Shown here one piece after another: positions 2,522 to 17,567 of a stretch of 56,411 nt of DNA. Positions within the stretch are counted from its first letter, which is position 1, and every line of letters starts with the position of its first letter. Origin of the DNA: Coriobacteriales bacterium (lineage in GTDB: Bacteria; Actinomycetota; Coriobacteriia; Coriobacteriales; RUG844); assembly GCA_017434185.1 (NCBI GenBank), contig JAFRFV010000050.1:1-56411 (forward strand), written 5' to 3'. The notes under the pieces were generated by a model. That model saw only the letters and a program-made list of their open reading frames with translations, did no database searches and was not told the origin of the DNA. The position numbers were made by a program, and so were the translations under genes.

Positions 2522-3060
2522 CGCTCAAGCGAAGCCATCACCAGCGACAATACCATGGGCGCCCAAGCGGTGAAGCGCTCCGGTGCGCTCGCCAGCTGTG
2601 CTGCCAGCTCATTGACACCCACCCAGCGCAGCGCGGCGATCTCGCTGGGATCGGGCGCGAACGCGCCCTCGCAGCGGCCTACCAGCACATGATCGTACTC
2701 GTGCTCGCACATGCCATCCTCGAAGACGGCACGGTACACGAATGCGCTTATCTCCCGCAAGTCGATGGCGCTGCAGCCCAGCTCCTCGCGCACGCGCCGG
2801 TAGGCGGCGTCGATCACGGTCTCGCCCGCACGCGGATGTGAACAGCAGGAGTTCGCCCACAGACCGGCGGAATGGTACTTGCCTGCAGCGCGTTGCGAGA
2901 GAAGCAGCTCCGGACCATGCTCGCCATCGCGCAGCAGCTGTACGCTGAACGCACGATGCAGGAGGCCCTCCACGTGGGTACGCTGCTTGGTCGCCACTCC
3001 CAGCTGGCGGTCGAGTCCGTCAACCAGGATGAGCTCATCGTTTGCAGCATTGTCCATCAT
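2518..3060 (-). CDS. idi: Isopentenyl-diphosphate delta-isomerase, type 1 (Nudix fold)
   Basis: Motifs H..GLLHRAFS, QRAAGKYH, WANSCCSHP, REELG and EHEYDHV. Confidence 0.93.
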   Translation of the reverse strand: MMDNAANDELILVDGLDRQLGVATKQRTHVEGLLHRAFSVQLLRDGEHGPELLLSQRAAGKYHSAGLWANSCCSHPRAGETVIDAAYRRVREELGCSAIDLREISAFVYRAVFEDGMCEHEYDHVLVGRCEGAFAPDPSEIAALRWVGVNELAAQLASAPERFTAWAPMVLSLVMASLER

Positions 3061-3177
3061 CGTGTGGCCCCCATGTCCGTCGCGCTTATCACGAAACCGT
3101 ATCGCATCCTGCGTGGAATACGCGCATACGGCTATGATACGCTAGAACGACCAAGGTGGGAGATGAAAGGGGTCTCT

Positions 3178-4371
3178 ATGGGCTCTCTGCGCCATGTGAA
3201 GGTGACGATCGTCGCTGTGTTGTGCGTTGCCGCTTTCGCATTCTTCGGGCTCTGTGGATGCGGCGGGAACGGTGGTTCCGGCGACCCGCTGGGTAGCTCC
3301 GGTGGTGGCGAGCGACTTTCCGTCACGGCCCCCGTGCACAAGGACAGCAGCTTTGGCGGCGTGTACATAGACGTCACGATCGATGAGTTCAACAAGCTGG
3401 GCTTCGAGTACGGCGACTGCGTGGACATCAGTTTCTCGAACGGCTACCAGCTCAACGGCATCCCCTATTACAACGGCTACTACGTGAACGTGGGCGACCC
3501 GCTGCTGGTGGGCTACCCCGGCTACCCGCACGTCGAGGCGGCGGTCAACTATGGCAGCCCCCTGTGGGATACCGCGGGCCTGACGGACGCTGACAGCGCC
3601 ACCATCACGTTGGTGCAGGCGGGCGCGTACCGCGACGTGCAGGAGGCCTTCAACATCAGCTACGGCATCGACCGCGATGCCTACGAGGGTACGGACCTGC
3701 AGTGGGCCAACTTCCGCGCCCTCTCCGGCGGCGACATGAAGCCGGGTATCGCGTACCGCTCCGCTTCCCCCATCGACAACGAGTACAACCGCGTCGCCTA
3801 CGTGGACAAGGCGATGCGGGATGCCGGCGTGGCCTTTGTCCTGAACCTGTCCGACAACAAGAGCGAGGCGCACAGCTTCGTGAAGGAATCGAAGGCGCAG
3901 GGCCTCGACATGAAGTACATAGGGGACCTGCATTCGGCGGGTGCGATCGCCTATCTGGACCTGTCCGCGAGCTATCCCACGCAGAGCTTCGCGCAGAAGC
4001 TGGTGGGTGGCCTGGAGCTGATGATCGAGAGTGATGGCCCCTACCTGATCCACTGCATCGAAGGCAAAGACCGCACGGGTTTCGTGTGCGCGCTGCTGGA
4101 GGCACTCTGCGGCGCGAGCTACGACGAGATGGCCGCGGACTACATGGAGACCTTCGCGAACTACTACGGCATCACGCTTGAGAGCGACCCGGCCAAGTAC
4201 AACGCGATCCTGCATCTGAACCTGGACGGCATGCTGCGCTTCCTCGCGGGTGCCGATGACGATGTGGACCTGCGCACGCTCGATTATCAGCAGGCAGCGC
4301 GTGACTACCTGCGTTGGGGCGGCATGTCGGACGAGGACATCGACCTGCTGGTGGAACAGCTGACGCAGTAA
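3178..4371 (+). CDS. Exported protein-tyrosine-phosphatase-like (lipo)protein with an extra N-terminal beta domain
   Basis: AAAGGGG RBS then ATG 3178. Signal/lipobox-like GLCGC. P-loop HCIEGKDRTG and 'YRSASP' motif of the Y_phosphatase3/DSP class. Confidence 0.8.
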   Translation: MGSLRHVKVTIVAVLCVAAFAFFGLCGCGGNGGSGDPLGSSGGGERLSVTAPVHKDSSFGGVYIDVTIDEFNKLGFEYGDCVDISFSNGYQLNGIPYYNGYYVNVGDPLLVGYPGYPHVEAAVNYGSPLWDTAGLTDADSATITLVQAGAYRDVQEAFNISYGIDRDAYEGTDLQWANFRALSGGDMKPGIAYRSASPIDNEYNRVAYVDKAMRDAGVAFVLNLSDNKSEAHSFVKESKAQGLDMKYIGDLHSAGAIAYLDLSASYPTQSFAQKLVGGLELMIESDGPYLIHCIEGKDRTGFVCALLEALCGASYDEMAADYMETFANYYGITLESDPAKYNAILHLNLDGMLRFLAGADDDVDLRTLDYQQAARDYLRWGGMSDEDIDLLVEQLTQ

Positions 4372-7850: not shown

Positions 7851-9800
7851 CTACCAGCGTTTCACGATCGTGAGGATGTTCCTGCCATCGCTGCGCTCGT
7901 AGCTGATCTCGTCCACGCTCTTCTTGGCCATCAGGATGCCCAGGCCACCGATGGGCACATCCTCGATCCTCTTGGGAGTGACCGCGTCGGGCTTCTTGAG
8001 GGGATCGAATTCGACGCCGCGGTCAATTAGATCGACCGTGATGGACGGCGGATCGGCGCTGTAGGTACGCTGCACGAGCACCGTGCGCGGCACTTCTGGT
8101 CCAGCGGACTTGTATGCATAGCAGCAGATGTTGGTGAAGAACTCCTCCACCGCGATATCGAGCTTGTTCTGCACGCGCGACGGGCAGAACCTGCGATCGA
8201 GCTCGGCATGCAGGAAGTCGTTCACGCGCTCGAGCTCCGGCAGCAGCGCGGGTACTTCCAGCGATGCGGTGACCTCGGGCGGCACGCCCACCTCGAGCGT
8301 GAGGATGGTGATGTCATCGGATTGCTCGGCGCCCCACGAGAAGCTGTTGACGCCATCGCGCACGGATTCGAGCAGTTCACGCGGATGCAGGCGGTAACCC
8401 CTCTCCGCGATCTCCAGGAGCCCCTTGGTCCCGAACATCTTCTCCTGGGTGTCGAAGGCTTCGGTCACACCGTCGGTATAGAGCAGGAACATGTCGCCCG
8501 GCTTGCAGTCCACGGAGAAGGTGCGATACGTGCGGTCGAAGTTGCCCAACATGGGGCCGGAACGCTGCTTGAGCCAGCGCCAACCACCATCACGTTGCCA
8601 GAGCAGCGGCGGGTTGTGACCGGCGTTGACGTAGTCCACGTGCCCCGTCCCGTAGTCGAGCACGCCCACCCAAGCCGTGACGAACACGCCTTCTTCGTTG
8701 CCTTCGAGCAGCTGACGGTTGGTCTCCGAGACCGCCTCGCCAAGCTCCAGATGCGAGGTCATGTAGTCACGGAGCAGGGCCTTGGCCTTCATCATGAACA
8801 GGGCGGCAGGTACACCCTTGCCGCTCACGTCAGCCACGAGGAAGCCCAGTTTGCCCTTGTAGGCGTCGCAGTCGTCACCGATGAGGAAGAAGTCGTAGAA
8901 GTCGCCACCGATCTGCCTCGCGGCATTCATCGTGGCGTAGATATCGAACTTCATGATGTCCGGGAAGGGCGGGAAGGTACGCGGCAGGGCCGCCTCCTGG
9001 ATGGCGCGTGCGGTTTCGAGTTCGGCATCCATGCGGCTCTCGGTTTCGGCGATGAGCTTCTGCATGGATGAGATGGCGCCGTTGATACCCGCGGTGAGTT
9101 CCTCGAACTCGACGGTGCCTCCCACATCGGCACGTGCGTTCAGATCACCCTTGGCAACGCGGGCGAGTACCGCATTCTCCTGGTCGATGCGCCTGATGAC
9201 GATGTTCTGCAACAACTTGAAGCTGCCCCAGAACATGGCGAGCAGCGCCAACAGGATCGTGAGCGACATGAGAGCGAAGAAGAGCAGGAGGTTGTTGTAG
9301 ACCATCGTCACCGGCTGGACGATGATCACGCTGTAGTCGCCACGACTCATGGCGAGCAGATGGCCCTCACCCAAGGGGGAACCGGGCGGGTAGGGCGTGT
9401 TACCGGGATAGATGACCTTCATCACGTCACCCGTCTCCTGGCTTTGCGCGATGGCACCAAGGGACCTGGCGCCGAAGGTCTTGGACACCTTGGCTCCCTT
9501 GGAGAAACGGGGATTGTTGCTCATGAGGATCGTTCCATCTTCCGTGGCGATTACGACCAGGCCGTTGTCGGCTTCGTCGAAACCATTCATGAGACTGTCG
9601 CCCAGGAAGCCGGACTCCAATTGGTTGAGCAGGTAGTTGGCATCGCCGGTCATGGTCTCCTTGGCAGTCCTGGCCTCGCCGTTCGCGACCATGAAGAAAC
9701 TCATGGCGGAGACGAGCACCGTCACCGCCGCGACGATTATGATGAGCTGCACGGCCAGGACCCTGCGCAGACTCCTCTTCTTGTTGGCTCTCTTGGGCAC
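7851..9800 (-). CDS. Membrane sensor - HAMP - SpoIIE/PP2C phosphatase fused to a C-terminal RsbW-like anti-sigma kinase (HATPase)
   Basis: Two TMs flank a ~130-aa extracytoplasmic domain, followed by HAMP. PP2C motifs GGDFYD, ADVSGKG, YTDGVTEA and DDIT. Kinase boxes EEFFTNI, DRGVEFDP and GGLGI. GTG 9800 follows a GGAGG RBS. Confidence 0.9.
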   Translation of the reverse strand: MPKRANKKRSLRRVLAVQLIIIVAAVTVLVSAMSFFMVANGEARTAKETMTGDANYLLNQLESGFLGDSLMNGFDEADNGLVVIATEDGTILMSNNPRFSKGAKVSKTFGARSLGAIAQSQETGDVMKVIYPGNTPYPPGSPLGEGHLLAMSRGDYSVIIVQPVTMVYNNLLLFFALMSLTILLALLAMFWGSFKLLQNIVIRRIDQENAVLARVAKGDLNARADVGGTVEFEELTAGINGAISSMQKLIAETESRMDAELETARAIQEAALPRTFPPFPDIMKFDIYATMNAARQIGGDFYDFFLIGDDCDAYKGKLGFLVADVSGKGVPAALFMMKAKALLRDYMTSHLELGEAVSETNRQLLEGNEEGVFVTAWVGVLDYGTGHVDYVNAGHNPPLLWQRDGGWRWLKQRSGPMLGNFDRTYRTFSVDCKPGDMFLLYTDGVTEAFDTQEKMFGTKGLLEIAERGYRLHPRELLESVRDGVNSFSWGAEQSDDITILTLEVGVPPEVTASLEVPALLPELERVNDFLHAELDRRFCPSRVQNKLDIAVEEFFTNICCYAYKSAGPEVPRTVLVQRTYSADPPSITVDLIDRGVEFDPLKKPDAVTPKRIEDVPIGGLGILMAKKSVDEISYERSDGRNILTIVKRW

Positions 9801-9848
9801 CAGCACCTCCGCTCGATCACTCGCTCGGACACGTGCTCACTCGAGCAC

Positions 9849-10154
9849 TCAGTCGGTCACGATCTCGAAGACCTCGTTGAGGCCCGTCATCTCGAAGACC
9901 TCCATGACCTCTTCGCAGGGGTGCAGCAGGCGCATGGTGCCCCCGCGCTTGACGGCCAACTTGTCGGCGGCCACGAGCACGCGCAGACCGGCGGAAGCGA
10001 CGTAACTCACTTCCTTCATGTCGATGTCCAGATCGTAAACGGTGTGGGGCAGCTGATCCACCGCGGCGGTCAACTCAGGTGAAGTGTTGACGGTGAGCTT
10101 GCCACCCAGCTCGATAGTCGCCTTGCTGTCCTCGATCTTGGTCACGATCTTCAT
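9849..10154 (-). CDS. STAS-domain anti-sigma-factor antagonist
   Basis: 101 aa with GKLTVNTSPEL and the phospho-acceptor motif YVASAGLRVL; AAGGAAGG RBS. Confidence 0.9.
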   Translation of the reverse strand: MKIVTKIEDSKATIELGGKLTVNTSPELTAAVDQLPHTVYDLDIDMKEVSYVASAGLRVLVAADKLAVKRGGTMRLLHPCEEVMEVFEMTGLNEVFEIVTD

Positions 10155-10158
10155 GTTC

Positions 10159-12351
10159 TCATCCTTCCTTATCCAAACGCTGGCGTTCAACCAACTCAGC
10201 GAAGATTCCGTTCTTGGCTATGAGTTCCTCGTAGGTTCCCTGTTCTGCGATGACACCGTCGTCGACCACAAGTATACGGTCACAATGCTTCACGGTCGAG
10301 AGGCGATGTGCCACGACGATGCGCGTACACTTGAGTTTGGCCAGCGCATCGGCCACGTGCTTCTGGGTGATGTTGTCGAGTGCGCTCGTGGCCTCGTCCA
10401 GCATGAGGATGCGACGCTTGCCACATACGGCACGCGCGATCATGAGACGCTGCCGCTGTCCGCCGGAGATGCCACTGCCGCTTTCGGATATGAGCGTCTG
10501 CATACCCATGGGCATCTTGCGTATGTCCTTGGCGATGCCGGCCAACTCCGCAGCAGCCCATGCATCATCGACCGTCGCAAGCGGATTCGAGATGGTGATG
10601 TTGGACAGGATATCGCCCATGAACAACTTGCCATCCTGCATGACCACACCGATGCGCTGACGCAACGACGTCAGATCGACCTTGCTCGTATCGTAGGGGC
10701 CATAGAAGATACTGCCGCGCTCGGGCGTCTCGAAGCCCAGGAGCAGGCGCATGATGGTCGACTTGCCACAACCACTCTTGCCCACGATGGCCACGTATTC
10801 ACCCTGTCGCACCTTGAACGAGAGGTCACGCAGCACATAGGGGCTCGTCTCGGAATAGCGGAACGCCACACCGGAGACCTCGATCGCACCACTGATGTTC
10901 TCCACCGAGGGCTTATCCTCAGCGATCTCGGGCGTCGCCTCCAGGATGGGTGCCGTCAGGTCGAGCAGGGGCCTGATCTGGGCCATCTCACCCGCGATGC
11001 CCGCGAGCGCCATGATGGCGGCCGTCACCTGGCCATAAGCCACGTTGAACGCCATGAACTCGGCCACGCTCACGCCCTTCATGCCCGCCAGATAGTAGAT
11101 GAGGATGTTACCCAGCAAGCCGATGAGCGCCACGAATGCGGGGAGCGCCTGCACGAGCGTCGGACGATTGTAGTTCACCCGCGCGAGATCCGAGAACTCA
11201 TGCGCCCATTTGGCGAAGGCGCGGTCCTCAGCACCGGCCAGCTTGATCTTCTGGATACCCTCCAGAAGCGCCGTCACCGTACCGGAGAGCTTGGCCTGCA
11301 TCCTCATTCCCTCGTACTCGTAGTTGCGCGTAATGAACGCGGCGATCACGGTGAGCCCCGCTTGCAGGAAGACGACAGCGAAGGCGGGAAGCGCGAGAGA
11401 CGGTGTGATCACGCCGATCTGGAAGATGTAGATGATCGACATGGCGCACGAGAGGAACGAACCCAGCAGGATGGAGGTGATGAGCAGCGAGAGTGTGGTC
11501 ACGCTCGCCACGCGGCTCGCCAGATCACCGGTCTCGTACTGCTTGAAGAACGACGTGGGGAGTGAGAGCACGCGCGAGAAGGTGGCGGCTTCGGCCGCGT
11601 TGCGCAGCTTACCGGACACACGCTCCATCACCAACTTGCGGTAGACGTTGATGAGCGTGGTTGAAACCGCCACGCCAAGCAGGAGGGCGGCGATGGGAAG
11701 GATAAGCCCGGATTGGCCGGAAGGTGCCACCACTTCGAAGGCGACCTTGTTCACCCACGCGGGGAGCAAGCCGATGAGTGCGACGGCGAACGATGCGAAG
11801 AACAGGAGCAGATAATCGCCCCGGCTGTAGATGCGCGAGAGGAACTGGATGAGGTCACGCGTGGTGAGCGCCTTCGCGGGCAGGGGGCGGTAGAACACCT
11901 CGGCATCGGGTAGGATGTGTTGCGCGACCTCGTCGGTCACCTTGAGCTTGCGTCCTGTGCCGGGCTCGAGGTAATGGAAGCCGTGTACGCTCCTGGGCAG
12001 AAGGGCGATCGACTGGCCCGTGTCCATCTTGGCCACCATGGCGCCGAAACCGTTCTTGTGCCAGCCGGGGGTCAGATACACCTTGCGGCGCATCGTGCCG
12101 CTGGGACGGCAGAGCCAATCCAAGCGTTCATTGGGATCGCGGACGCTGTCGGAAACATGTCCGGGAGTGATACCGTAGTACTTGAGACAGGCCCTGGCGG
12201 TGCCATCGACCTGCTCCAGCTCGTCGATGGTGTAGAAGGGCGCCTGGTTGGGATCGGTCACACTCGCTGCAAGCTGATTGAACGCACGCTCCGTGATCTC
12301 CGCGTCAAGACGCATACGGGTCTCGATCTGGGATTCCATCCACCTAGTCAT
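10159..12351 (-). CDS. NHLM/NHLP-system ABC transporter permease/ATPase (subunit without an active peptidase)
   Basis: ABC membrane domain, Walker A GKSGCGKST, signature ISGGQRQR and Walker B LDEATSALD. The N-terminus lacks the C39 catalytic Cys. The start overlaps the upstream stop. Confidence 0.88.
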   Translation of the reverse strand: MTRWMESQIETRMRLDAEITERAFNQLAASVTDPNQAPFYTIDELEQVDGTARACLKYYGITPGHVSDSVRDPNERLDWLCRPSGTMRRKVYLTPGWHKNGFGAMVAKMDTGQSIALLPRSVHGFHYLEPGTGRKLKVTDEVAQHILPDAEVFYRPLPAKALTTRDLIQFLSRIYSRGDYLLLFFASFAVALIGLLPAWVNKVAFEVVAPSGQSGLILPIAALLLGVAVSTTLINVYRKLVMERVSGKLRNAAEAATFSRVLSLPTSFFKQYETGDLASRVASVTTLSLLITSILLGSFLSCAMSIIYIFQIGVITPSLALPAFAVVFLQAGLTVIAAFITRNYEYEGMRMQAKLSGTVTALLEGIQKIKLAGAEDRAFAKWAHEFSDLARVNYNRPTLVQALPAFVALIGLLGNILIYYLAGMKGVSVAEFMAFNVAYGQVTAAIMALAGIAGEMAQIRPLLDLTAPILEATPEIAEDKPSVENISGAIEVSGVAFRYSETSPYVLRDLSFKVRQGEYVAIVGKSGCGKSTIMRLLLGFETPERGSIFYGPYDTSKVDLTSLRQRIGVVMQDGKLFMGDILSNITISNPLATVDDAWAAAELAGIAKDIRKMPMGMQTLISESGSGISGGQRQRLMIARAVCGKRRILMLDEATSALDNITQKHVADALAKLKCTRIVVAHRLSTVKHCDRILVVDDGVIAEQGTYEELIAKNGIFAELVERQRLDKEG

Positions 12352-14503
12352 TGCGCACCAACTCCGCATATGCCCCGTTTTGTGCCAGGAGCTGGTCGTG
12401 GGTGCCTCTCTCGACCACCTTGCCCTCGTCGAGCACGATGATCTCATCACAATCGCGGATGGTGCTCAGGCGGTGTGCGACGACAACACAGGTGATGCCA
12501 CGGTCGCGGATGCGCCCGATCACCTCGGCTTCGGTTTGGGCATCAAGGGCGCTCGTGGCCTCATCCAGGATGACGATGGTGGGATCCTGTGCGAGGACAC
12601 GCGCTATCTCGAGTCGTTGCAGCTGACCGCCGCTGTAATTGCGGCCTCCCGGCAGGATGCGGCTGTTGTAGCCACCTTCACGGGCGGCGATCACGTCATG
12701 GATGCCAGCATCGCGACAGGCGAGGATGACCTCGTAGTCCTCGATGCTCCTGTCCCATAGCTTGACGTTGTCGCTCACCGTATCATCGAAGGTCACGATG
12801 TCCTGGTCCACAACGGAAAGCGAGCAACGCAGGATGGGCGTGGGGATCTCGCGCAGGGGGATACCGTCGAAGAGCACCTGTCCGCTCCAGGGATCGAAGA
12901 GGCCGGAGATGATCTTCGCGATCGTGCTCTTGCCGCAGCCCGAGCCGCCCACGAGCGCGACCCACTGGCCCGGCTCGAGATGGAGATCGAAGTTCTCGAC
13001 CAGCGGGGGCTCGAACGGCGAGTAGCCAAAGGTCACACCCTGCAGGTCGATGCGACCACGTAGTTTCTCGTGATCGAAGTCCTGGGCGGGAAGCGCCTGT
13101 GCATCCTCCGGTACGTCGACTGGATTGCGCATGACGTCTTCGACGCGCTCCATCTCGGTGCTCACCTCCTGGACCGTCTGGCCCAGACCGATCAACTGCG
13201 TCACCGGCTCCATGAACGAACTCAGGAAGCCTGTGAAGGCGAGTAACATACCGGGCGTGAATTGATGTTCGATGATGAGCCAGATGCCCAACACGAAGAC
13301 CACGATGTTGGCGATCTTGGTCACGAGCGTGGGAACCACGCCAAGGACCTCGTTCACGCGCATCAGACGACCGCGTGTGCCACCGAAGATCACCTGGTAG
13401 CCGGCCCAGCGGCTGAAGAAGCCCCTCTCCGCACCGGCGGCCTTGATGGTCTCGATCATCTGGATGCCGTTCACCGTGGTCGAATACTGCTTGCTCGCGT
13501 TGATCGTGTTGGCGCGCGAGACGTTCACGCGCTGCGTGGAGATGTAGTGCGCGACGAACGCGTTCGCGATCACGGTGACCACACCCACCAGGGTGAGCAG
13601 AGCGCTGTAATTGAGCATGATGAACAGGTAGAGCACCAGCATGAGGGTGTTCACGAGCACCGGAGCCAGACGCCCCACGAGTGACATCGCGATCTGCTCG
13701 TTGGCGGACTGGCGTTGCTGCAGATCGCCTATCATGCGCTGCGAGAAGAAGCCCACGGGCAGATGCAGCAGATGGCGCATGAAGCGTGATGAACTCACCA
13801 CGGCGATCTTGCCCTGGATGCGGTTCAGGAACACGGCGTTCAGAACGGTCATGATACCGCTGATGATCGCGAGTATGAGCATGACGGCCATCAGGGGGAT
13901 GAGCCAGTCAGGGTCGTTTCGGGTCAGGATGCGGTCCATGAAGACCTGGCCGAGCGACGTGCTCAGGATGGCCACGAGCGAGCTCACCAATGCGGTGAGC
14001 ATGACGAAGGTGATGGCGGGAGCAAGACCCTTCAGTCGTTGGCGCGCATACTTGAGCGTGTCGGGCTTCTGGCCACCGGGCTCGAAGGCGTCGGTCTTCT
14101 CGAACATGAGCGCGACACCGGTGAAGCTCTTGTTGAATTCGCTCATGCTCACTTTGAGCTGCCCGCGTGCGGGATCGTTGATGAGAGCGAACTTGCCCTT
14201 GAAGCCACACAGCACGACGAAGTGGTTGAAGTTCCAGAACAGGATGCAGGGGATGTTCCCGCTCTTGCGCAGCGCCTCACTCGAGAAGCTCATCCCCTTG
14301 GCGGATAAGCCATAGCGCCGTGCGGCTTTGAGCATGTTCGAGGCCTTGGAGCCATCGCGGGAGACGCCGCAATCCTCACGCACCTGCTCGAGCGGCACCC
14401 AGCGGCCGTAGTACGCGAGGATCATGGTGAGACAGGCGGCGCCGCATTCGAGCGCCTCCATCTGCATGACCTGCGGGACCTTGACGACGGAATCGGTCAT
14501 CAC
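12344..14503 (-). CDS. NHLM/NHLP-system C39 peptidase / ABC transporter
   Basis: C39 triad intact: QMEALECGAACL (Cys), WNFNHFVV (His) and INDPARG (Asp). Walker A GGSGCGKST and signature YSGGQLQR. Confidence 0.93.
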   Translation of the reverse strand: MMTDSVVKVPQVMQMEALECGAACLTMILAYYGRWVPLEQVREDCGVSRDGSKASNMLKAARRYGLSAKGMSFSSEALRKSGNIPCILFWNFNHFVVLCGFKGKFALINDPARGQLKVSMSEFNKSFTGVALMFEKTDAFEPGGQKPDTLKYARQRLKGLAPAITFVMLTALVSSLVAILSTSLGQVFMDRILTRNDPDWLIPLMAVMLILAIISGIMTVLNAVFLNRIQGKIAVVSSSRFMRHLLHLPVGFFSQRMIGDLQQRQSANEQIAMSLVGRLAPVLVNTLMLVLYLFIMLNYSALLTLVGVVTVIANAFVAHYISTQRVNVSRANTINASKQYSTTVNGIQMIETIKAAGAERGFFSRWAGYQVIFGGTRGRLMRVNEVLGVVPTLVTKIANIVVFVLGIWLIIEHQFTPGMLLAFTGFLSSFMEPVTQLIGLGQTVQEVSTEMERVEDVMRNPVDVPEDAQALPAQDFDHEKLRGRIDLQGVTFGYSPFEPPLVENFDLHLEPGQWVALVGGSGCGKSTIAKIISGLFDPWSGQVLFDGIPLREIPTPILRCSLSVVDQDIVTFDDTVSDNVKLWDRSIEDYEVILACRDAGIHDVIAAREGGYNSRILPGGRNYSGGQLQRLEIARVLAQDPTIVILDEATSALDAQTEAEVIGRIRDRGITCVVVAHRLSTIRDCDEIIVLDEGKVVERGTHDQLLAQNGAYAELVRND

Positions 14504-15009
14504 GCATTGCCTCCCAGCACCAGTCTGATGGGTGCGATGCGCTCGGTCGTGATGGTGACGGTGAGTGGGACGTTCTCATCCAGCGACCCGGTGGTCCCTT
14601 GGAAGACCACCTGATACGCCCAATCCCCTTCGACGAGCGCACTCACCAGGTAGTCACTGCGCAGGATCCCACTCGCTTCATCACGGGAGACGGGCACGCG
14701 GGAGATGCTCGCGACCTTCATCTGCTCGCCACCCACCACGGCGACGTCGCCCACCTGGACTTTGGCGGCATCCTCCGCTTCAAGGAAGCACATGGCGCTA
14801 CCATCCACGCAAACGCCCGTGGTGGAGACGCTCGTGGTGACCGCGCCGAAGACGCCCCAGGCGAGAAGGCCCAGGAGCAGGGCGATACAGGCACCTATGA
14901 TGTACCAGACACTGGGGGTGGTCACACCCAGATACTTGTCCAGGTCATCCGGATTGCGCAACCTCTGCGTGGCCTGTTGGTTGAAGATCGAACTCTTGGT
15001 GTCCGCCAT
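14500..15009 (-). CDS. Short NHLM-system secretion accessory protein (HlyD-like, no long coiled coil)
   Basis: N-terminus SIFNQQATQRLRNPDDLDKYLGVTTPSVW followed by a TM, and C-terminal TERIAPIRLV, both typical of NHLM secretion proteins. Only 169 aa. Confidence 0.75.
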   Translation of the reverse strand: MADTKSSIFNQQATQRLRNPDDLDKYLGVTTPSVWYIIGACIALLLGLLAWGVFGAVTTSVSTTGVCVDGSAMCFLEAEDAAKVQVGDVAVVGGEQMKVASISRVPVSRDEASGILRSDYLVSALVEGDWAYQVVFQGTTGSLDENVPLTVTITTERIAPIRLVLGGNA

Positions 15010-15515
15010 CACTGGCTCCTCTCTGCGGCCCGACGCATCTTCTCGAGCGCACGTGCGAGTTTGGTGGAAACGGTTGATGGTTTCATGCACAGCTCCTGCG
15101 CGATCCGCGCATTGCGCATGCCATCACGGTATTTGAGTGCAACGATCTCGCGTTCCTTCTGATCAAGGCACGCGAGCAGTTGCTTGATCAACATGAGGTC
15201 GAGTGAGGCATCCTGCTCCGGGGCGAGCTCGAGCAGAGGCTCCGGCACATCGTCGAGCACAACAAGCGTGCGCTCCTTGCGATAATGGCTCACCAGGCAG
15301 TTCTTGGCGATGGCGATGACCCAGGTGCTGAACCCAGCGCGCGTCGGGTCGAAGGAATCGAAGGAGCGGGCAGCCTTCAGGAACGCCTCGCTCACGATGT
15401 CCTGGGCATCCGCATCACAGGCCGCACGGGCCCGCACGAAACCATAGACGGTGGCGAAACTCTCGTTGTAGAGGCGAGTGAATTCACGCTCGCGGTCCGA
15501 AGGGGACTGCGTCAC
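15009..15515 (-). CDS. ECF sigma-70 factor (no. 1)
   Basis: Region 2 'AQDIVSEAFLKA' and 'FSTWVIAIAKN'; region 4 HTH 'EREIVALKYRDGMRNARIAQEL...TVSTKLARA'. A TGATG overlap couples it to the secretion gene. Confidence 0.92.
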   Translation of the reverse strand: MTQSPSDREREFTRLYNESFATVYGFVRARAACDADAQDIVSEAFLKAARSFDSFDPTRAGFSTWVIAIAKNCLVSHYRKERTLVVLDDVPEPLLELAPEQDASLDLMLIKQLLACLDQKEREIVALKYRDGMRNARIAQELCMKPSTVSTKLARALEKMRRAAERSQ

Positions 15516-15626
15516 GCGGGCAGGGCGCAGCGCAGCCCACTCCGGCCTGCGGGGTGTGGCTCCTGCCTTGTCACCTGCATTGAACGTCGCGGACTCCGTT
15601 CGACGGCGTCAGTTCCATAGCAGATG

Positions 15627-15635
15627 ATTGTAGCA
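15627..15635 (-). promoter_or_regulatory. Candidate extended -10 (TGCTACAAT) for the ECF sigma no. 1 / transporter operon
   Basis: A TGnTACAAT match about 110 nt upstream of the sigma start codon, in the intergenic gap. Confidence 0.4.
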
Positions 15636-15665
15636 TACTGCGGCTTGGGTTTGAGGCTGCCCCGC

Positions 15666-15899
15666 TCAATCCAAGGGGGATTCAGATGCATCCGGGACGG
15701 CGTGCCCTGCGGCGAGTTCCGGAACACCGGCGGCGGCGAGCATCTCCAGGTCGTCGTCATCGAGTGGCATGCCCTCGTCGTTGGCATGCAATGTGGCGAT
15801 GCAGCGTTCGAGCAGCGCATCACGGAACCCCTGTGTGCCCGCACTCAGGTCCTGTTGCATCATGCGTTCCAACATCTGCTCGAACTCTCGTTCTTCCAC
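15666..15899 (-). CDS. 77-aa acidic protein with an internal double-glycine-leader-like motif; candidate anti-sigma factor
   Basis: GGAGG RBS then GTG 15899: MEEREFEQMLERMMQQDLSAGTQGFRDALLERCIATLHANDEGMPLDDDDLEMLAAAGVPEL... It lies directly upstream of the ECF sigma gene. Confidence 0.7.
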   Translation of the reverse strand: MEEREFEQMLERMMQQDLSAGTQGFRDALLERCIATLHANDEGMPLDDDDLEMLAAAGVPELAAGHAVPDASESPLD

Positions 15900-15954
15900 G
15901 TCCGCCTCCCCTTCCGTGTCCCGCTCGCATGCGCCCATGCATGCTCATGCCCTT

Positions 15955-15982
15955 TATACGTACGGAGAAGGGCTTTCGTCCC
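15955..15982 (-). promoter_or_regulatory. Candidate ECF promoter GGGACG-N16-CGTATA (toward the 77-aa gene and transporter operon)
   Basis: On the minus strand, -35 at 15977-15982 and -10 at 15955-15960, with a 16-nt spacer. It matches the divergent copy. Confidence 0.5.
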
Positions 15983-16014
15983 AGGGAATCTTGAAGAATC
16001 ATTCCCGATTCGTT

Positions 16015-16042
16015 GAGACAGAAACAGTCCTTGCAACGTACA
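16015..16042 (+). promoter_or_regulatory. Candidate ECF promoter GAGACA-N16-CGTACA (toward the precursor peptide)
   Basis: -35 at 16015-16020, -10 at 16037-16042 and a 16-nt spacer, 44 nt upstream of ATG 16086. Confidence 0.5.
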
Positions 16043-16085
16043 ATGTTCGGACGAAGGGAATGACCCTCTTGAGAAGGGATCGATC

Positions 16086-16313
16086 ATGATAGACAGTCAA
16101 ACCGAAGGCATCGAGCTCCCTGATGAGCTGCTCGAAGCGGTCGCAGGTGGACGCCTGGCGGACATCGGCATGGACAACTTCCGCTCTTGGCTGGCGTTCG
16201 CCAAGGAGAAGGGTTTCGATAAGGACTTCGCTCTGGCCACCTTCGGTGGTGCGGGCCTGGCACTCGCCGACGGGTTCACCGACAAGCTCGCCTCGATGTG
16301 GGACGAGATCTAG
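16086..16313 (+). CDS. Double-glycine-leader precursor peptide (22-aa leader plus 53-aa Cys-free core)
   Basis: GAAGGGA RBS; leader MIDSQTEGIELPDELLEAVAGG; divergent from a C39 exporter; followed by a strong hairpin. Confidence 0.85.
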   Translation: MIDSQTEGIELPDELLEAVAGGRLADIGMDNFRSWLAFAKEKGFDKDFALATFGGAGLALADGFTDKLASMWDEI

Positions 16314-16345
16314 GGAACGCGACGCGAACCAAGCATGGAACACCA

Positions 16346-16369
16346 AGGCCCGCAGGAAACTGCGGGCCT
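16346..16369. terminator. Stem-loop between convergent genes (probable terminator)
   Basis: AGGCCCGCAG-GAAA-CTGCGGGCCT: a perfect 10-bp stem with a GNRA loop. Confidence 0.7.
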
Positions 16370-16400: not shown

Positions 16401-17567
16401 TCAGATGCGCGTACGCGAACGACGCGCGGTCATGCTGATGCTGATAAGCGCGGCGCCAGCGAGCAGGGCAAGCGCTGCGATGGGCGCGGTATCGCCGGTC
16501 TTGGGGGTGCTGCCGTCCTCGGCGTCGCCGCTGCCACCATCGCCGTTGTCGTCGCCGTCGTCGTCGCCGTTGGGTGTGGGATCGGCGTTCTTCTCGTAGA
16601 TAGCGGTGTAGTCATGATCGCCTTCGACGACGAACTCCTCACCTGCTTGAAGCTGAGAGCCTTCCCAATACTTGAACGTGTGGCCGTCAAGCGTGGGGGC
16701 ACCGGGAGCCTTGATCGTCTCGCCCACGTTCGCATCGATGGTGATGCTGCCTCCGGTCTGGCTATCGAGCGTGCCCTCACCCAGGTTGAAGGTGAGCTTC
16801 GCTGGTGTCGTGGTCAGGTACTGGGTATCCGTGACCCTTCCAGACAAGCCGGATGAAGGGTAATCGGAAGACCGCGCCGTGATTACTGCCTCGAACTTAG
16901 CGTCGCCACTATGGATAATAACATCGTAGGGCACCGTATACGGGAAGTCGTGCGTCATGCTTCCGTCGGGAGCAAGAGTCTCGATAAGCCACGACGCTCC
17001 GGAAAGATGGTCGCTGATCAAGATGTCGTTCAAGTTGGCGAGCCCTACATTCTTGACGGTGACCTTCCAATTGATCGTCTCGCCGAATACATATTGGGGA
17101 CCATTACTGGGAGGGTTGGTGGCTTCGACGGTGACGTACAGAGGAGACGCTGGAAGAGTGTAGGATCTTGTGGCGGTGATCTCTTCGTCGGAGAATTCGT
17201 GAGTGGAAGCGGAGAACGTGAAGTCCTTCTCGATCGAACCGGCAAGCGCATCGTCTTGGGTCACAGTATGCGTGAGGGTGGCTGTCATCTTTTCTCCAGG
17301 GGCGAGGTGTGAAAACAACAGGGTTTTGTCACCCTCCTCGTCGGTGACTCCGATATTGACGAGTTCCTGGTAGTCTCCGCAGGTGAAATCCACCTCCCAC
17401 TTGATGACATCGCCAGGGACATAGGCGAAACCATGGAGAGGGTCATCAAGGGGACCCCTCATCTCGATTGTCATACAATCATCCAAGTCTTCGGCAAGAG
17501 CCGAACCTGGAAACAGCACCGCTGCCACCATCAGGCTCAGCAACGCGATGATGAGTCTCTTCTTCAT
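16401..17567 (-). CDS. Sortase-anchored surface protein with two Ig-like (DUF11/DUF7507-like) repeats and an InlB B-repeat-like domain
   Basis: Signal peptide; repeats 'YVPGDVIKWEVDFT..N..VTD' and 'YVFGETINWKVTVKNVG...ISD'; 'PTLDGHTFKYW...YTAIY'; TPKTGD, TM and basic tail. AGGAGG RBS. Confidence 0.85.
   Translation of the reverse strand: MKKRLIIALLSLMVAAVLFPGSALAEDLDDCMTIEMRGPLDDPLHGFAYVPGDVIKWEVDFTCGDYQELVNIGVTDEEGDKTLLFSHLAPGEKMTATLTHTVTQDDALAGSIEKDFTFSASTHEFSDEEITATRSYTLPASPLYVTVEATNPPSNGPQYVFGETINWKVTVKNVGLANLNDILISDHLSGASWLIETLAPDGSMTHDFPYTVPYDVIIHSGDAKFEAVITARSSDYPSSGLSGRVTDTQYLTTTPAKLTFNLGEGTLDSQTGGSITIDANVGETIKAPGAPTLDGHTFKYWEGSQLQAGEEFVVEGDHDYTAIYEKNADPTPNGDDDGDDNGDGGSGDAEDGSTPKTGDTAPIAALALLAGAALISISMTARRSRTRI

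Follow-up and report, generated by a model that had tools for sequence, protein, structure and literature searches.

How is a peptide exporter regulated when its genes are accompanied by both a sigma factor and a partner switch? In a window of 56,411 nucleotides (nt), which is the whole stretch analysed here and which comes from contig JAFRFV010000050.1 of a gut Coriobacteriales bacterium, the genes of an ATP-binding cassette (ABC) peptide exporter lie in one run with those of an extracytoplasmic function (ECF) sigma factor, a STAS protein and a membrane-bound phosphatase/kinase. Taken singly, ECF sigma factors, partner switching and the export of peptides through C39 ABC transporters are well-established modules, and the initial annotation had joined them into a closed signalling loop. 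In this study, we find that the sigma factor tracks a 77-amino-acid (aa) peptide precursor and not the switch, that the switch is linked to the exporter and recurs with it across Coriobacteriia genera, and that sigma factor and switch are separable add-ons to the exporter. Tentatively, we favour a sigma-driven peptide-export cassette in which a phospho-STAS switch would gate the exporter, rather than one in which the switch releases the sigma factor.

Gene content of the locus

Domain content was called with Pfam and NCBIfam profile searches together with a listing of open reading frames (ORFs), and the locus contains the following features.

7851 to 9806, minus strand: membrane-bound fusion of a PP2C phosphatase and an RsbW-type kinase (PP2C-kinase), 651 aa, called from Pfam profiles; the start may be the GTG at 9800
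9849 to 10154, minus strand: STAS-only protein, 101 aa; TIGR00377 at 67.6 bits (cut-off 53)
10159 to 12351, minus strand: ABC2, second NHLM-type ABC permease/ATPase; TIGR03797 at 691 bits, slightly below the cut-off of 709.4
12344 to 14503, minus strand: ABC1, C39 peptidase/permease/ATPase; TIGR03796 at 938 bits (cut-off 853.3) over positions 1-710, Peptidase_C39 E=3e-35
14500 to 15009, minus strand: short HlyD-like protein with a single transmembrane (TM) segment, 169 aa; TIGR03794 over positions 1-82 of 421 at 38.9 bits (cut-off 156)
15009 to 15515, minus strand: ECF sigma factor, 168 aa; Sigma70_r2 E=1e-15, r4_2 E=2.5e-11, TIGR02937 at 100 bits
15666 to 15899, minus strand: LAAAG-leader precursor, 77 aa; GTG start behind GGAGG, with homologues and a coding G+C pattern
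15955 to 15982, minus strand: ECF-like promoter motif GGGACG-N16-CGTATA, beginning 83 nt upstream of the GTG of the 77-aa gene at 15899
16015 to 16042, plus strand: promoter motif GAGACA-N16-CGTACA, beginning 71 nt upstream of the ATG of the double-glycine (GG) peptide gene
16086 to 16313, plus strand: orphan GG peptide, divergent from the rest, with a 22-aa leader and a 53-aa anionic core without Cys

The genes from sigma to PP2C-kinase are tightly coupled, with TGATG at the sigma/HlyD and HlyD/ABC1 junctions, ATGACTAG at the ABC1/ABC2 junction, and gaps of 4 nt between ABC2 and STAS and of 42-48 nt between STAS and PP2C-kinase, and these junctions together with the domain profiles confirm the gene run (sigma, HlyD-like, C39-ABC, second ABC, STAS, PP2C-kinase) of the initial annotation. 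The annotation was also right about the divergent double-glycine precursor, which has a canonical leader (MIDSQTEGIELPDELLEAVAGG, with L-12, L-7, V-4 and GG, preceding the 53-aa core) and a coding pattern of G+C at the three codon positions (GC1/2/3), and about the absence of YcaO, LanM, radical-SAM and two-component genes, none of which was found within ~8 kb; a cognate histidine kinase with its response regulator was likewise not found between positions 1 and 17567 of the window. While every gene it listed stands, it missed the conserved 77-aa gene at 15666-15899 on the minus strand, between the sigma and the divergent peptide genes.

ABC1 has the catalytic Cys, His and Asp of its peptidase (ECGAAC...NHFVV...NDP), and an exact look-up of the protein returned no record. 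Despite the score below the cut-off, TIGR03797 is by far the best family for ABC2, whose N-terminal 180 aa are unannotated; no Pfam family matched this N-terminus, the short HlyD-like protein (54-68% identical among relatives) or the ectodomain of the PP2C-kinase. A second, truncated exporter copy is found in the same genome on a contig of 2144 bases (C148), with 67% identity in ABC1 and 54% at the end of the HlyD-like gene, and the genome thus probably holds two exporter cassettes.

A family of LAAAG-leader precursors

The 77-aa gene heads the operon, has a coding pattern (GC1/2/3 of 0.76/0.42/0.71), and is followed by neither an intrinsic terminator nor an unusually stable fold in the interval before the sigma gene. 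The window precursor has a helical leader, 57-58 aa long and with LEMLAAAG at its end, and a 19-aa tail that reads VPELAAGHAVPDASESPLD. In a profile search of 1.84 billion representative proteins at least 215 clusters matched at E<=1e-3, 131 of them at E<=1e-10, and almost all the members of this family measure 60-95 aa. Their alignment has a conserved leader of ~57 aa, with FRDxLLxRCL and LDDxxL[DE][ML]LAAAG, that changes abruptly to a hypervariable tail; R26, C33, A56, A57 and G58 are invariant, and the LAAAG-type site is present in 139 of 150 members. Among these 150 the tails measure 8-36 aa (median 16), are rich in Asp, Pro and Ser, carry a mean net charge of -1.8, contain Cys in just 16 cases and begin with Asp in 56%. 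Together these features form the signature of a leader-plus-core precursor, putatively the conserved one of this system.

The family is new and previously unannotated, and the 77-aa protein matched no Pfam or NCBIfam model even at E<=10. Profile searches found no member in 400 other Coriobacteriia or in 399 Clostridia genomes, the organism's own family being represented by 3 genomes, and metagenome scans with the family alignments gave nothing or merely four short loci. Among the loci of relatives that were fetched (numbered with L; L001-L080 were fetched through similarity to the PP2C-kinase and are a biased sample), homologues lead the same operon in L004, L007 and L016. In L113 (3857-4636), as in L114, L117 and L118, the exporter has been deleted by a junction of HlyD codon 28 to ABC2 codon 656, and the sigma and 77-aa genes are intact. 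NUDIX genes and paired unannotated proteins of 330-341 aa accompany the family in L106 (1900-3525), L125 (1233-1805 and 3489-8296) and L129 (15307-17320). Precursors of another kind, Nif11-like with long leaders and GG or AG sites, lie downstream of ABC2 in L031 (15505-15795), L043 (14210-14476) and L044 (11007-11339); their cores are just 10-14 aa long (e.g. RCAYTIEHFM), and a LytTR-type response regulator gene is nearby.

The sigma factor follows the precursor

Sigma genes were surveyed by phmmer, with ECF and group-2 sigma queries against all ORFs of all fetched loci, and were found solely beside members of the 77-aa family. The orthologues of the window sigma factor (51-65% identity) obey the same rule: the sigma gene lies immediately downstream of the 77-aa family gene in 9 loci and is convergent with it in 1. 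No sigma gene stands beside any of ~76 other PP2C-kinase/STAS loci or in any other fetched locus with exporter and switch, and the exporter contigs of G020, G032, G206, G212 and G216 have none either. The two partners also part company in individual loci, as L106 combines sigma, precursor and exporter with no switch in the fetched contig, which extends 206 nt upstream of the precursor gene, and L129 has a precursor directly upstream of HlyD-ABC1-ABC2 together with STAS and RsbW genes and no sigma gene within 20 kb.

A conserved motif, GRGACR-N15/16-CGTATA, precedes both peptide genes of the window, back to back, and ECF promoters, those of Bacillus subtilis sigma-W among them, typically have CGTATA as their -10 element. 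In its strict form the motif has 3 matches in the 2-Mb genome, 2 of them at this locus; the third lies inside uvrC and was taken as chance. Family members in L004, L016, L106, L111/L115, L116, L123, L125, L127 and L129 have it 62-106 nt upstream, those in L109 and L113 have it with a single mismatch, and second copies precede the neighbouring NUDIX operons in L106 and L125.

The ECF sigma factor has regions 2 and 4 alone. The genome, which is 93% complete, encodes RpoD, one group-2-like and three ECF sigma factors and none of the SigB/SigF type. No gene of the locus matched an anti-sigma domain, the gene downstream of sigma being the HlyD-like one. The short HlyD-like protein was itself considered as an anti-sigma factor and rejected, since the 35 aa of its cytoplasmic N-terminus are of the kind usual for NHLM HlyD proteins and also occur in sigma-less loci; a zinc-binding anti-sigma role of the 77-aa protein was rejected because it has no HxxxCxxC motif.

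The constant pairing of sigma and 77-aa genes might alternatively reflect an export-coupled anti-sigma factor like FlgM, in which the helical N-terminal domain of the 77-aa protein would hold the ECF sigma factor, the C39 exporter would cleave and expel the protein and thereby free sigma, and phospho-STAS would set the activity of the exporter and, indirectly, that of sigma. This would account for the gene order, for the lack of any other anti-sigma candidate, for the persistence of both genes in L113-type loci after deletion of the exporter, and for the invariant R26 and C33, which lie far from the cleavage site, suggest a protein partner and are explained by no modifying enzyme. AlphaFold2 (AF2) also predicts a long helix (residues 3-39) followed by a disordered tail, although with low confidence (pLDDT 64). 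However, the 77-aa gene lies upstream of sigma, at a distance of 77-460 nt, and is not translationally coupled to it, no anti-sigma domain was matched, the family member of L129 occurs with an exporter and without a sigma gene in 20 kb, and NHLM substrates ordinarily have long conserved leaders (PMC2887384), so that we regard an anti-sigma role of this kind as rather improbable.

The switch is linked to the exporter

The PP2C-kinase consists of TM1 (~16-40), an ectodomain (~41-170), TM2 (~171-197), a SpoIIE domain (318-506) and a HATPase_c_2 domain (519-649), the last two with E=2.5e-50 (SpoIIE/PP2C) and E=6e-19, next to a weak HAMP match of 21 bits (below 25). Its closest solved relative is Rv1364c RsbU+RsbW (3ke6; phmmer E=2.5e-12, Foldseek E=1e-15). 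AF2 predicts the ectodomain as mixed alpha/beta (pLDDT 75-88), and orthologues share 23-29% identity in the ectodomain and 54-76% in the catalytic domains. Orthologues in L004 (6888-9653), L007 (9293-12088), L014 and L001 have an extra N-terminal multi-TM domain of ~230 aa that the window protein is without.

The STAS protein keeps the phosphorylatable Ser in VASAGLR, as do all STAS proteins compared, across clades, and matches the NCBIfam mlaB model weakly (E=0.002). In its own genome it is the sole STAS protein, and the PP2C-kinase holds the sole HATPase_c_2 domain over the cut-off. The window protein's place in the STAS tree is a clade with 100/98 support, 5 of whose 6 members are encoded directly after ABC2. 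STAS genes located behind a PP2C-kinase make up a different clade (support 99/96), and L007 contributes a gene to both.

The initial annotation had named conservation of the STAS and PP2C genes together with the exporter as a test of its proposal, and comparison of gene order bears this conservation out. The full order of precursor, sigma, HlyD-like, ABC1, ABC2, STAS and PP2C-kinase is repeated in L004, L007 and L016. In a sample taken from the side of the exporter (TIGR03796 in 10 of 301 Coriobacteriia genomes, giving 11 loci, then extended), switch genes flank the exporter at 6-7 of the 11 NHLM loci, depending on a weak STAS match in L102: L096 and L097 have the order PP2C-STAS-RsbW-HlyD-ABC1-ABC2, L099 has PP2C-GG peptide-HlyD-ABC1-ABC2, L100 a PP2C gene amid two exporter pairs, L101 ABC2-GG peptide-PP2C, and L098 a STAS gene adjoining the exporter, and the exporter loci L095, L103, L104 and L105 are without switch genes. 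Among the loci obtained by way of the PP2C-kinase, Atopobiaceae-type contigs show yet other arrangements of exporter and switch. L033, L041 and L043 are high-GC, Coriobacteriia-like contigs filed under Alloprevotella, Methanobacteriaceae and Paludibacteraceae bins, probably through binning errors.

It might be argued that the switch genes merely adjoin an exporter to which they are functionally unrelated, as PP2C-kinase/STAS pairs also occur free of an exporter in L001, L005, L006 and L008. Yet the association recurs in several genera and in several gene orders, ABC2 and STAS lie 4 nt apart or overlap, and an exporter-linked STAS clade exists; because the genome has one STAS protein and one RsbW-like domain, the chance of such adjacency is a few per cent. 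Mere adjacency is thus the least probable of the explanations considered here.

STAS genes are tied to a second kind of ABC system in a recurrent unit of STAS, a 465-549-aa protein, a GAF-domain ABC ATPase (406-412 aa) and an FtsX-type permease of 1100-1160 aa (L001 12152-15362, L007 12113-18486, L127 1575-6758), where STAS directly follows the PP2C-kinase in L001 and L007. Elsewhere, a RelA_SpoT small alarmone synthetase and an HD hydrolase are encoded after STAS with RsbW or with a PP2C-kinase (L129 17414-19855, L033 8512-13062, L044 5349-10000), which suggests an alarmone output for the switch in the lineages with such neighbours.

The orphan double-glycine peptide

No homologue of the 53-aa GG peptide was found among 5.8 billion proteins, and the peptide has just a weak match to a CTB-type bacteriocin (E=0.026). 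In run X21, which came from an RNA query and whose run type is not on record, a single contig falls on 20 kb of the window; it is 237 nt long and lies at 16066-16302, on the GG peptide gene, and the gene is therefore probably well expressed and strongly transcribed. Contigs of the DNA runs X2-X5, compared with the window for hot spots of strain variation, gave mostly conserved ABC/PP2C motif noise from other organisms.

An unmodified class II bacteriocin, with sigma factor and switch serving producer regulation or immunity, would agree with the canonical GG leader, the C39 exporter, the absence of modifying enzymes and the probable strong transcription of the gene. Its core is anionic, however, no small membrane immunity gene lies beside it, it lacks homologues while the rest of the cassette is conserved, and the acidic Pro/Asp/Ser-rich tails of the conserved substrates, with their median of 16 aa, are unlike bacteriocins. 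We consider it very unlikely that this is a bacteriocin locus.

What the switch may control

In the closed loop of the initial annotation, the exported peptide would bind the ectodomain of the PP2C-kinase, STAS would be dephosphorylated and pull the kinase domain off the ECF sigma factor, and the peptide and exporter genes would be transcribed, which amounts to quorum sensing through partner switching. All its parts lie in one operon and are kept together in four loci, the only STAS protein and the only RsbW-like domain of the genome stand beside an ECF sigma factor without a recognisable anti-sigma factor, the genome offers the kinase no SigB/F-type sigma factor to hold, and ECF-like promoters precede both peptide genes. 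The lower identity of the ectodomain than of the catalytic domains is as in pherotype receptors, and short variable peptides adjoin membrane PP2C genes in L099 and L101, both of which are non-specific signs; the divergence of the ectodomain is weak evidence because sensor domains generally evolve fast.

Against the loop stands the distribution of the sigma gene, which follows the 77-aa peptide, is missing from the ~76 PP2C-kinase/STAS loci and the other loci with exporter and switch, and is part of a cassette with no switch in view in L106 and L125. To our knowledge, RsbW-type anti-sigma factors hold group-3 or primary sigma factors and not ECF sigma factors, which also counts against it. Thus, while the conservation of exporter with switch and the ECF-like motifs survive from that proposal, its step from switch to ECF sigma finds no support, and neither does its choice of the 53-aa peptide as the signal, as this peptide has no homologue whereas the 77-aa LAAAG precursor is conserved. 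On balance the loop seems unlikely.

We favour control in two layers because the switch is linked to the exporter, the sigma factor is linked to the 77-aa peptide, and the STAS protein falls into the clade that follows ABC2. In the course of events that we infer, from sigma dependence through cleavage and export to the target of STAS, the ECF sigma factor would read both back-to-back GRGACR-N16-CGTAYA promoters and thereby drive its own operon (77-aa precursor, sigma, exporter and switch) and the divergent GG peptide gene, as a small self-reinforcing regulon. The C39 domain of ABC1 would cleave after AVAGG and, to within one residue, after LAAAG, and ABC1, ABC2 and the short HlyD-like protein would secrete a short, unmodified acidic peptide of 19 aa and a strain-specific one of 53 aa, most probably as signals and not as toxins. 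The membrane-bound PP2C/kinase fusion, like SypE or Rv1364c, would both phosphorylate and dephosphorylate the single STAS protein as set by a cue at the ectodomain, and STAS would act on the exporter and gate secretion post-translationally, as MlaB does on MlaF or BtrU/V/W on type III secretion, with sigma not being freed. The SypE/SypA and BtrU/V/W systems show that partner-switching modules may have outputs other than sigma factors, secretion included (PMC8256260).

Several observations weigh against this reading or narrow it. It is gene order and phylogeny that point to the exporter as the putative target of STAS, and export can do without the switch, since the cassette of L106 has no STAS gene after ABC2. 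RelA_SpoT/HD genes adjoin the switch in L129 and in loci of the Atopobiaceae type, where its output could be an alarmone enzyme. The finding of no anti-sigma factor for the ECF sigma leaves that role open to the kinase domain or the 77-aa protein. The supposition, already made in the initial annotation, that sigma drives the peptide and exporter promoters draws on the conserved ECF-like motif at both divergent promoters, although the plus-strand site can also be read as a sigma-70 promoter (GAGACA-18-TACAAT), and L127 and L129 carry the motif though no sigma gene is in view.

Peptide sensing might also be combined with gating, in that the LAAAG-peptide tail, here together with the 53-aa GG peptide, would be a pherotype-specific pheromone read by the ectodomain of the PP2C/RsbW-kinase and relayed through STAS to the exporter, the ECF sigma factor or both; we think this doubtful. 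Were it true, Gram-positive bacteria would have a third class of receptor for peptide quorum sensing, in addition to histidine kinases and RRNPP proteins, and for gut bacteria a PP2C-kinase that reads a peptide would be a quorum-sensing receptor of a new kind. Gating of the pump by STAS, as in the two-layer reading that we prefer, would if real be a new post-translational control of type I secretion. The locus also offers a compact putative regulon, open to testing, of two promoters and one sigma factor.

Neighbouring genes

Beyond the GG peptide gene, positions 16401-17567 of the window encode a 388-aa DUF7507/DUF11 protein, and beside it a single ORF of 8234 aa (17607-42311, minus strand) resembles a giant repetitive surface protein. 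Towards the other end of the window lie, on the plus strand, an RHS-repeat protein (8-1309) and a tyrosine-phosphatase-like protein (2872-4371) with a weak match to a polymorphic-toxin phosphatase (Tc-R-P).

Comparison with known systems

Full-text searches of the literature turned up no paper joining partner switching to C39, peptide or bacteriocin export. New aspects are the occurrence in Coriobacteriia, the family with LAAAG leaders, the promoter motif with its conservation, and the separability of sigma and switch. One of the closest known systems is the NHLM (NHLP/Nif11-leader) export set defined by TIGR03794, TIGR03796 and TIGR03797 (Haft et al. 2010, PMC2887384). Like it, the present locus has a C39-ABC protein, a second ABC protein and an HlyD-family gene beside long-leader precursors with a Gly-Gly-type cleavage site. 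Unlike it, the HlyD-like protein is shortened to 169 aa where full-length TIGR03794 would be expected, the precursors match neither NHLP nor Nif11 models, modifying enzymes are absent, and an ECF sigma factor and a partner-switching pair are built into the operon.

With the streptococcal ComC/ComAB/ComDE and Blp systems the locus shares a GG-leader peptide, a C39 ABC exporter and short peptides that vary between strains, while an ECF sigma factor and a PP2C/kinase/STAS module replace their histidine kinase and response regulator. Actinobacterial lantibiotic clusters are under feed-forward control by the ECF sigma/anti-sigma pair MibX/MibW, and the present cluster resembles them in having a dedicated ECF sigma factor for ribosomal peptides but differs in having neither a membrane anti-sigma factor nor modification enzymes. 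Compared with ECF sigma/anti-sigma pairs in general, the sigma factor has the usual r2 and r4 regions and no recognisable co-transcribed anti-sigma factor. Of the elements of RsbU/RsbV/RsbW-SigB regulation, a PP2C, a STAS protein with a phosphorylatable Ser and an RsbW-type kinase are present, but the 93%-complete genome has no cognate group-3 sigma factor of the SigB/SigF type.

MlaB is a STAS accessory subunit of the ABC ATPase MlaF, and here too a STAS-only gene follows the ABC genes of a transporter operon, with a complex being predicted from gene coupling and clade; we know of no phospho-regulation of MlaB, whereas the present STAS protein has the phosphorylatable Ser and a dedicated kinase/phosphatase. 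Vibrio fischeri SypE/SypA and Mycobacterium tuberculosis Rv1364c are like the PP2C-kinase in combining an RsbW-type kinase and a PP2C, directed at STAS, in one polypeptide, here with the STAS gene adjacent, and differ in that the input here is a two-TM extracytoplasmic domain instead of a receiver or PAS domain and that the module sits inside a peptide-exporter operon. The output of SypA is not a sigma factor (PMC8256260), and the related PP2C-kinase/STAS modules, with no sigma gene nearby, look as they would with a non-sigma output. The Bordetella system of BtrS with BtrU/BtrV/BtrW likewise encodes an ECF sigma factor and PP2C, STAS and kinase proteins together with a secretion machine, and its switch proteins control secretion rather than releasing sigma (PMC8256260); the present locus differs from it in that its secretion machine is a type I (ABC) exporter of peptides, its host is Gram-positive, and kinase and phosphatase are fused and membrane-bound.

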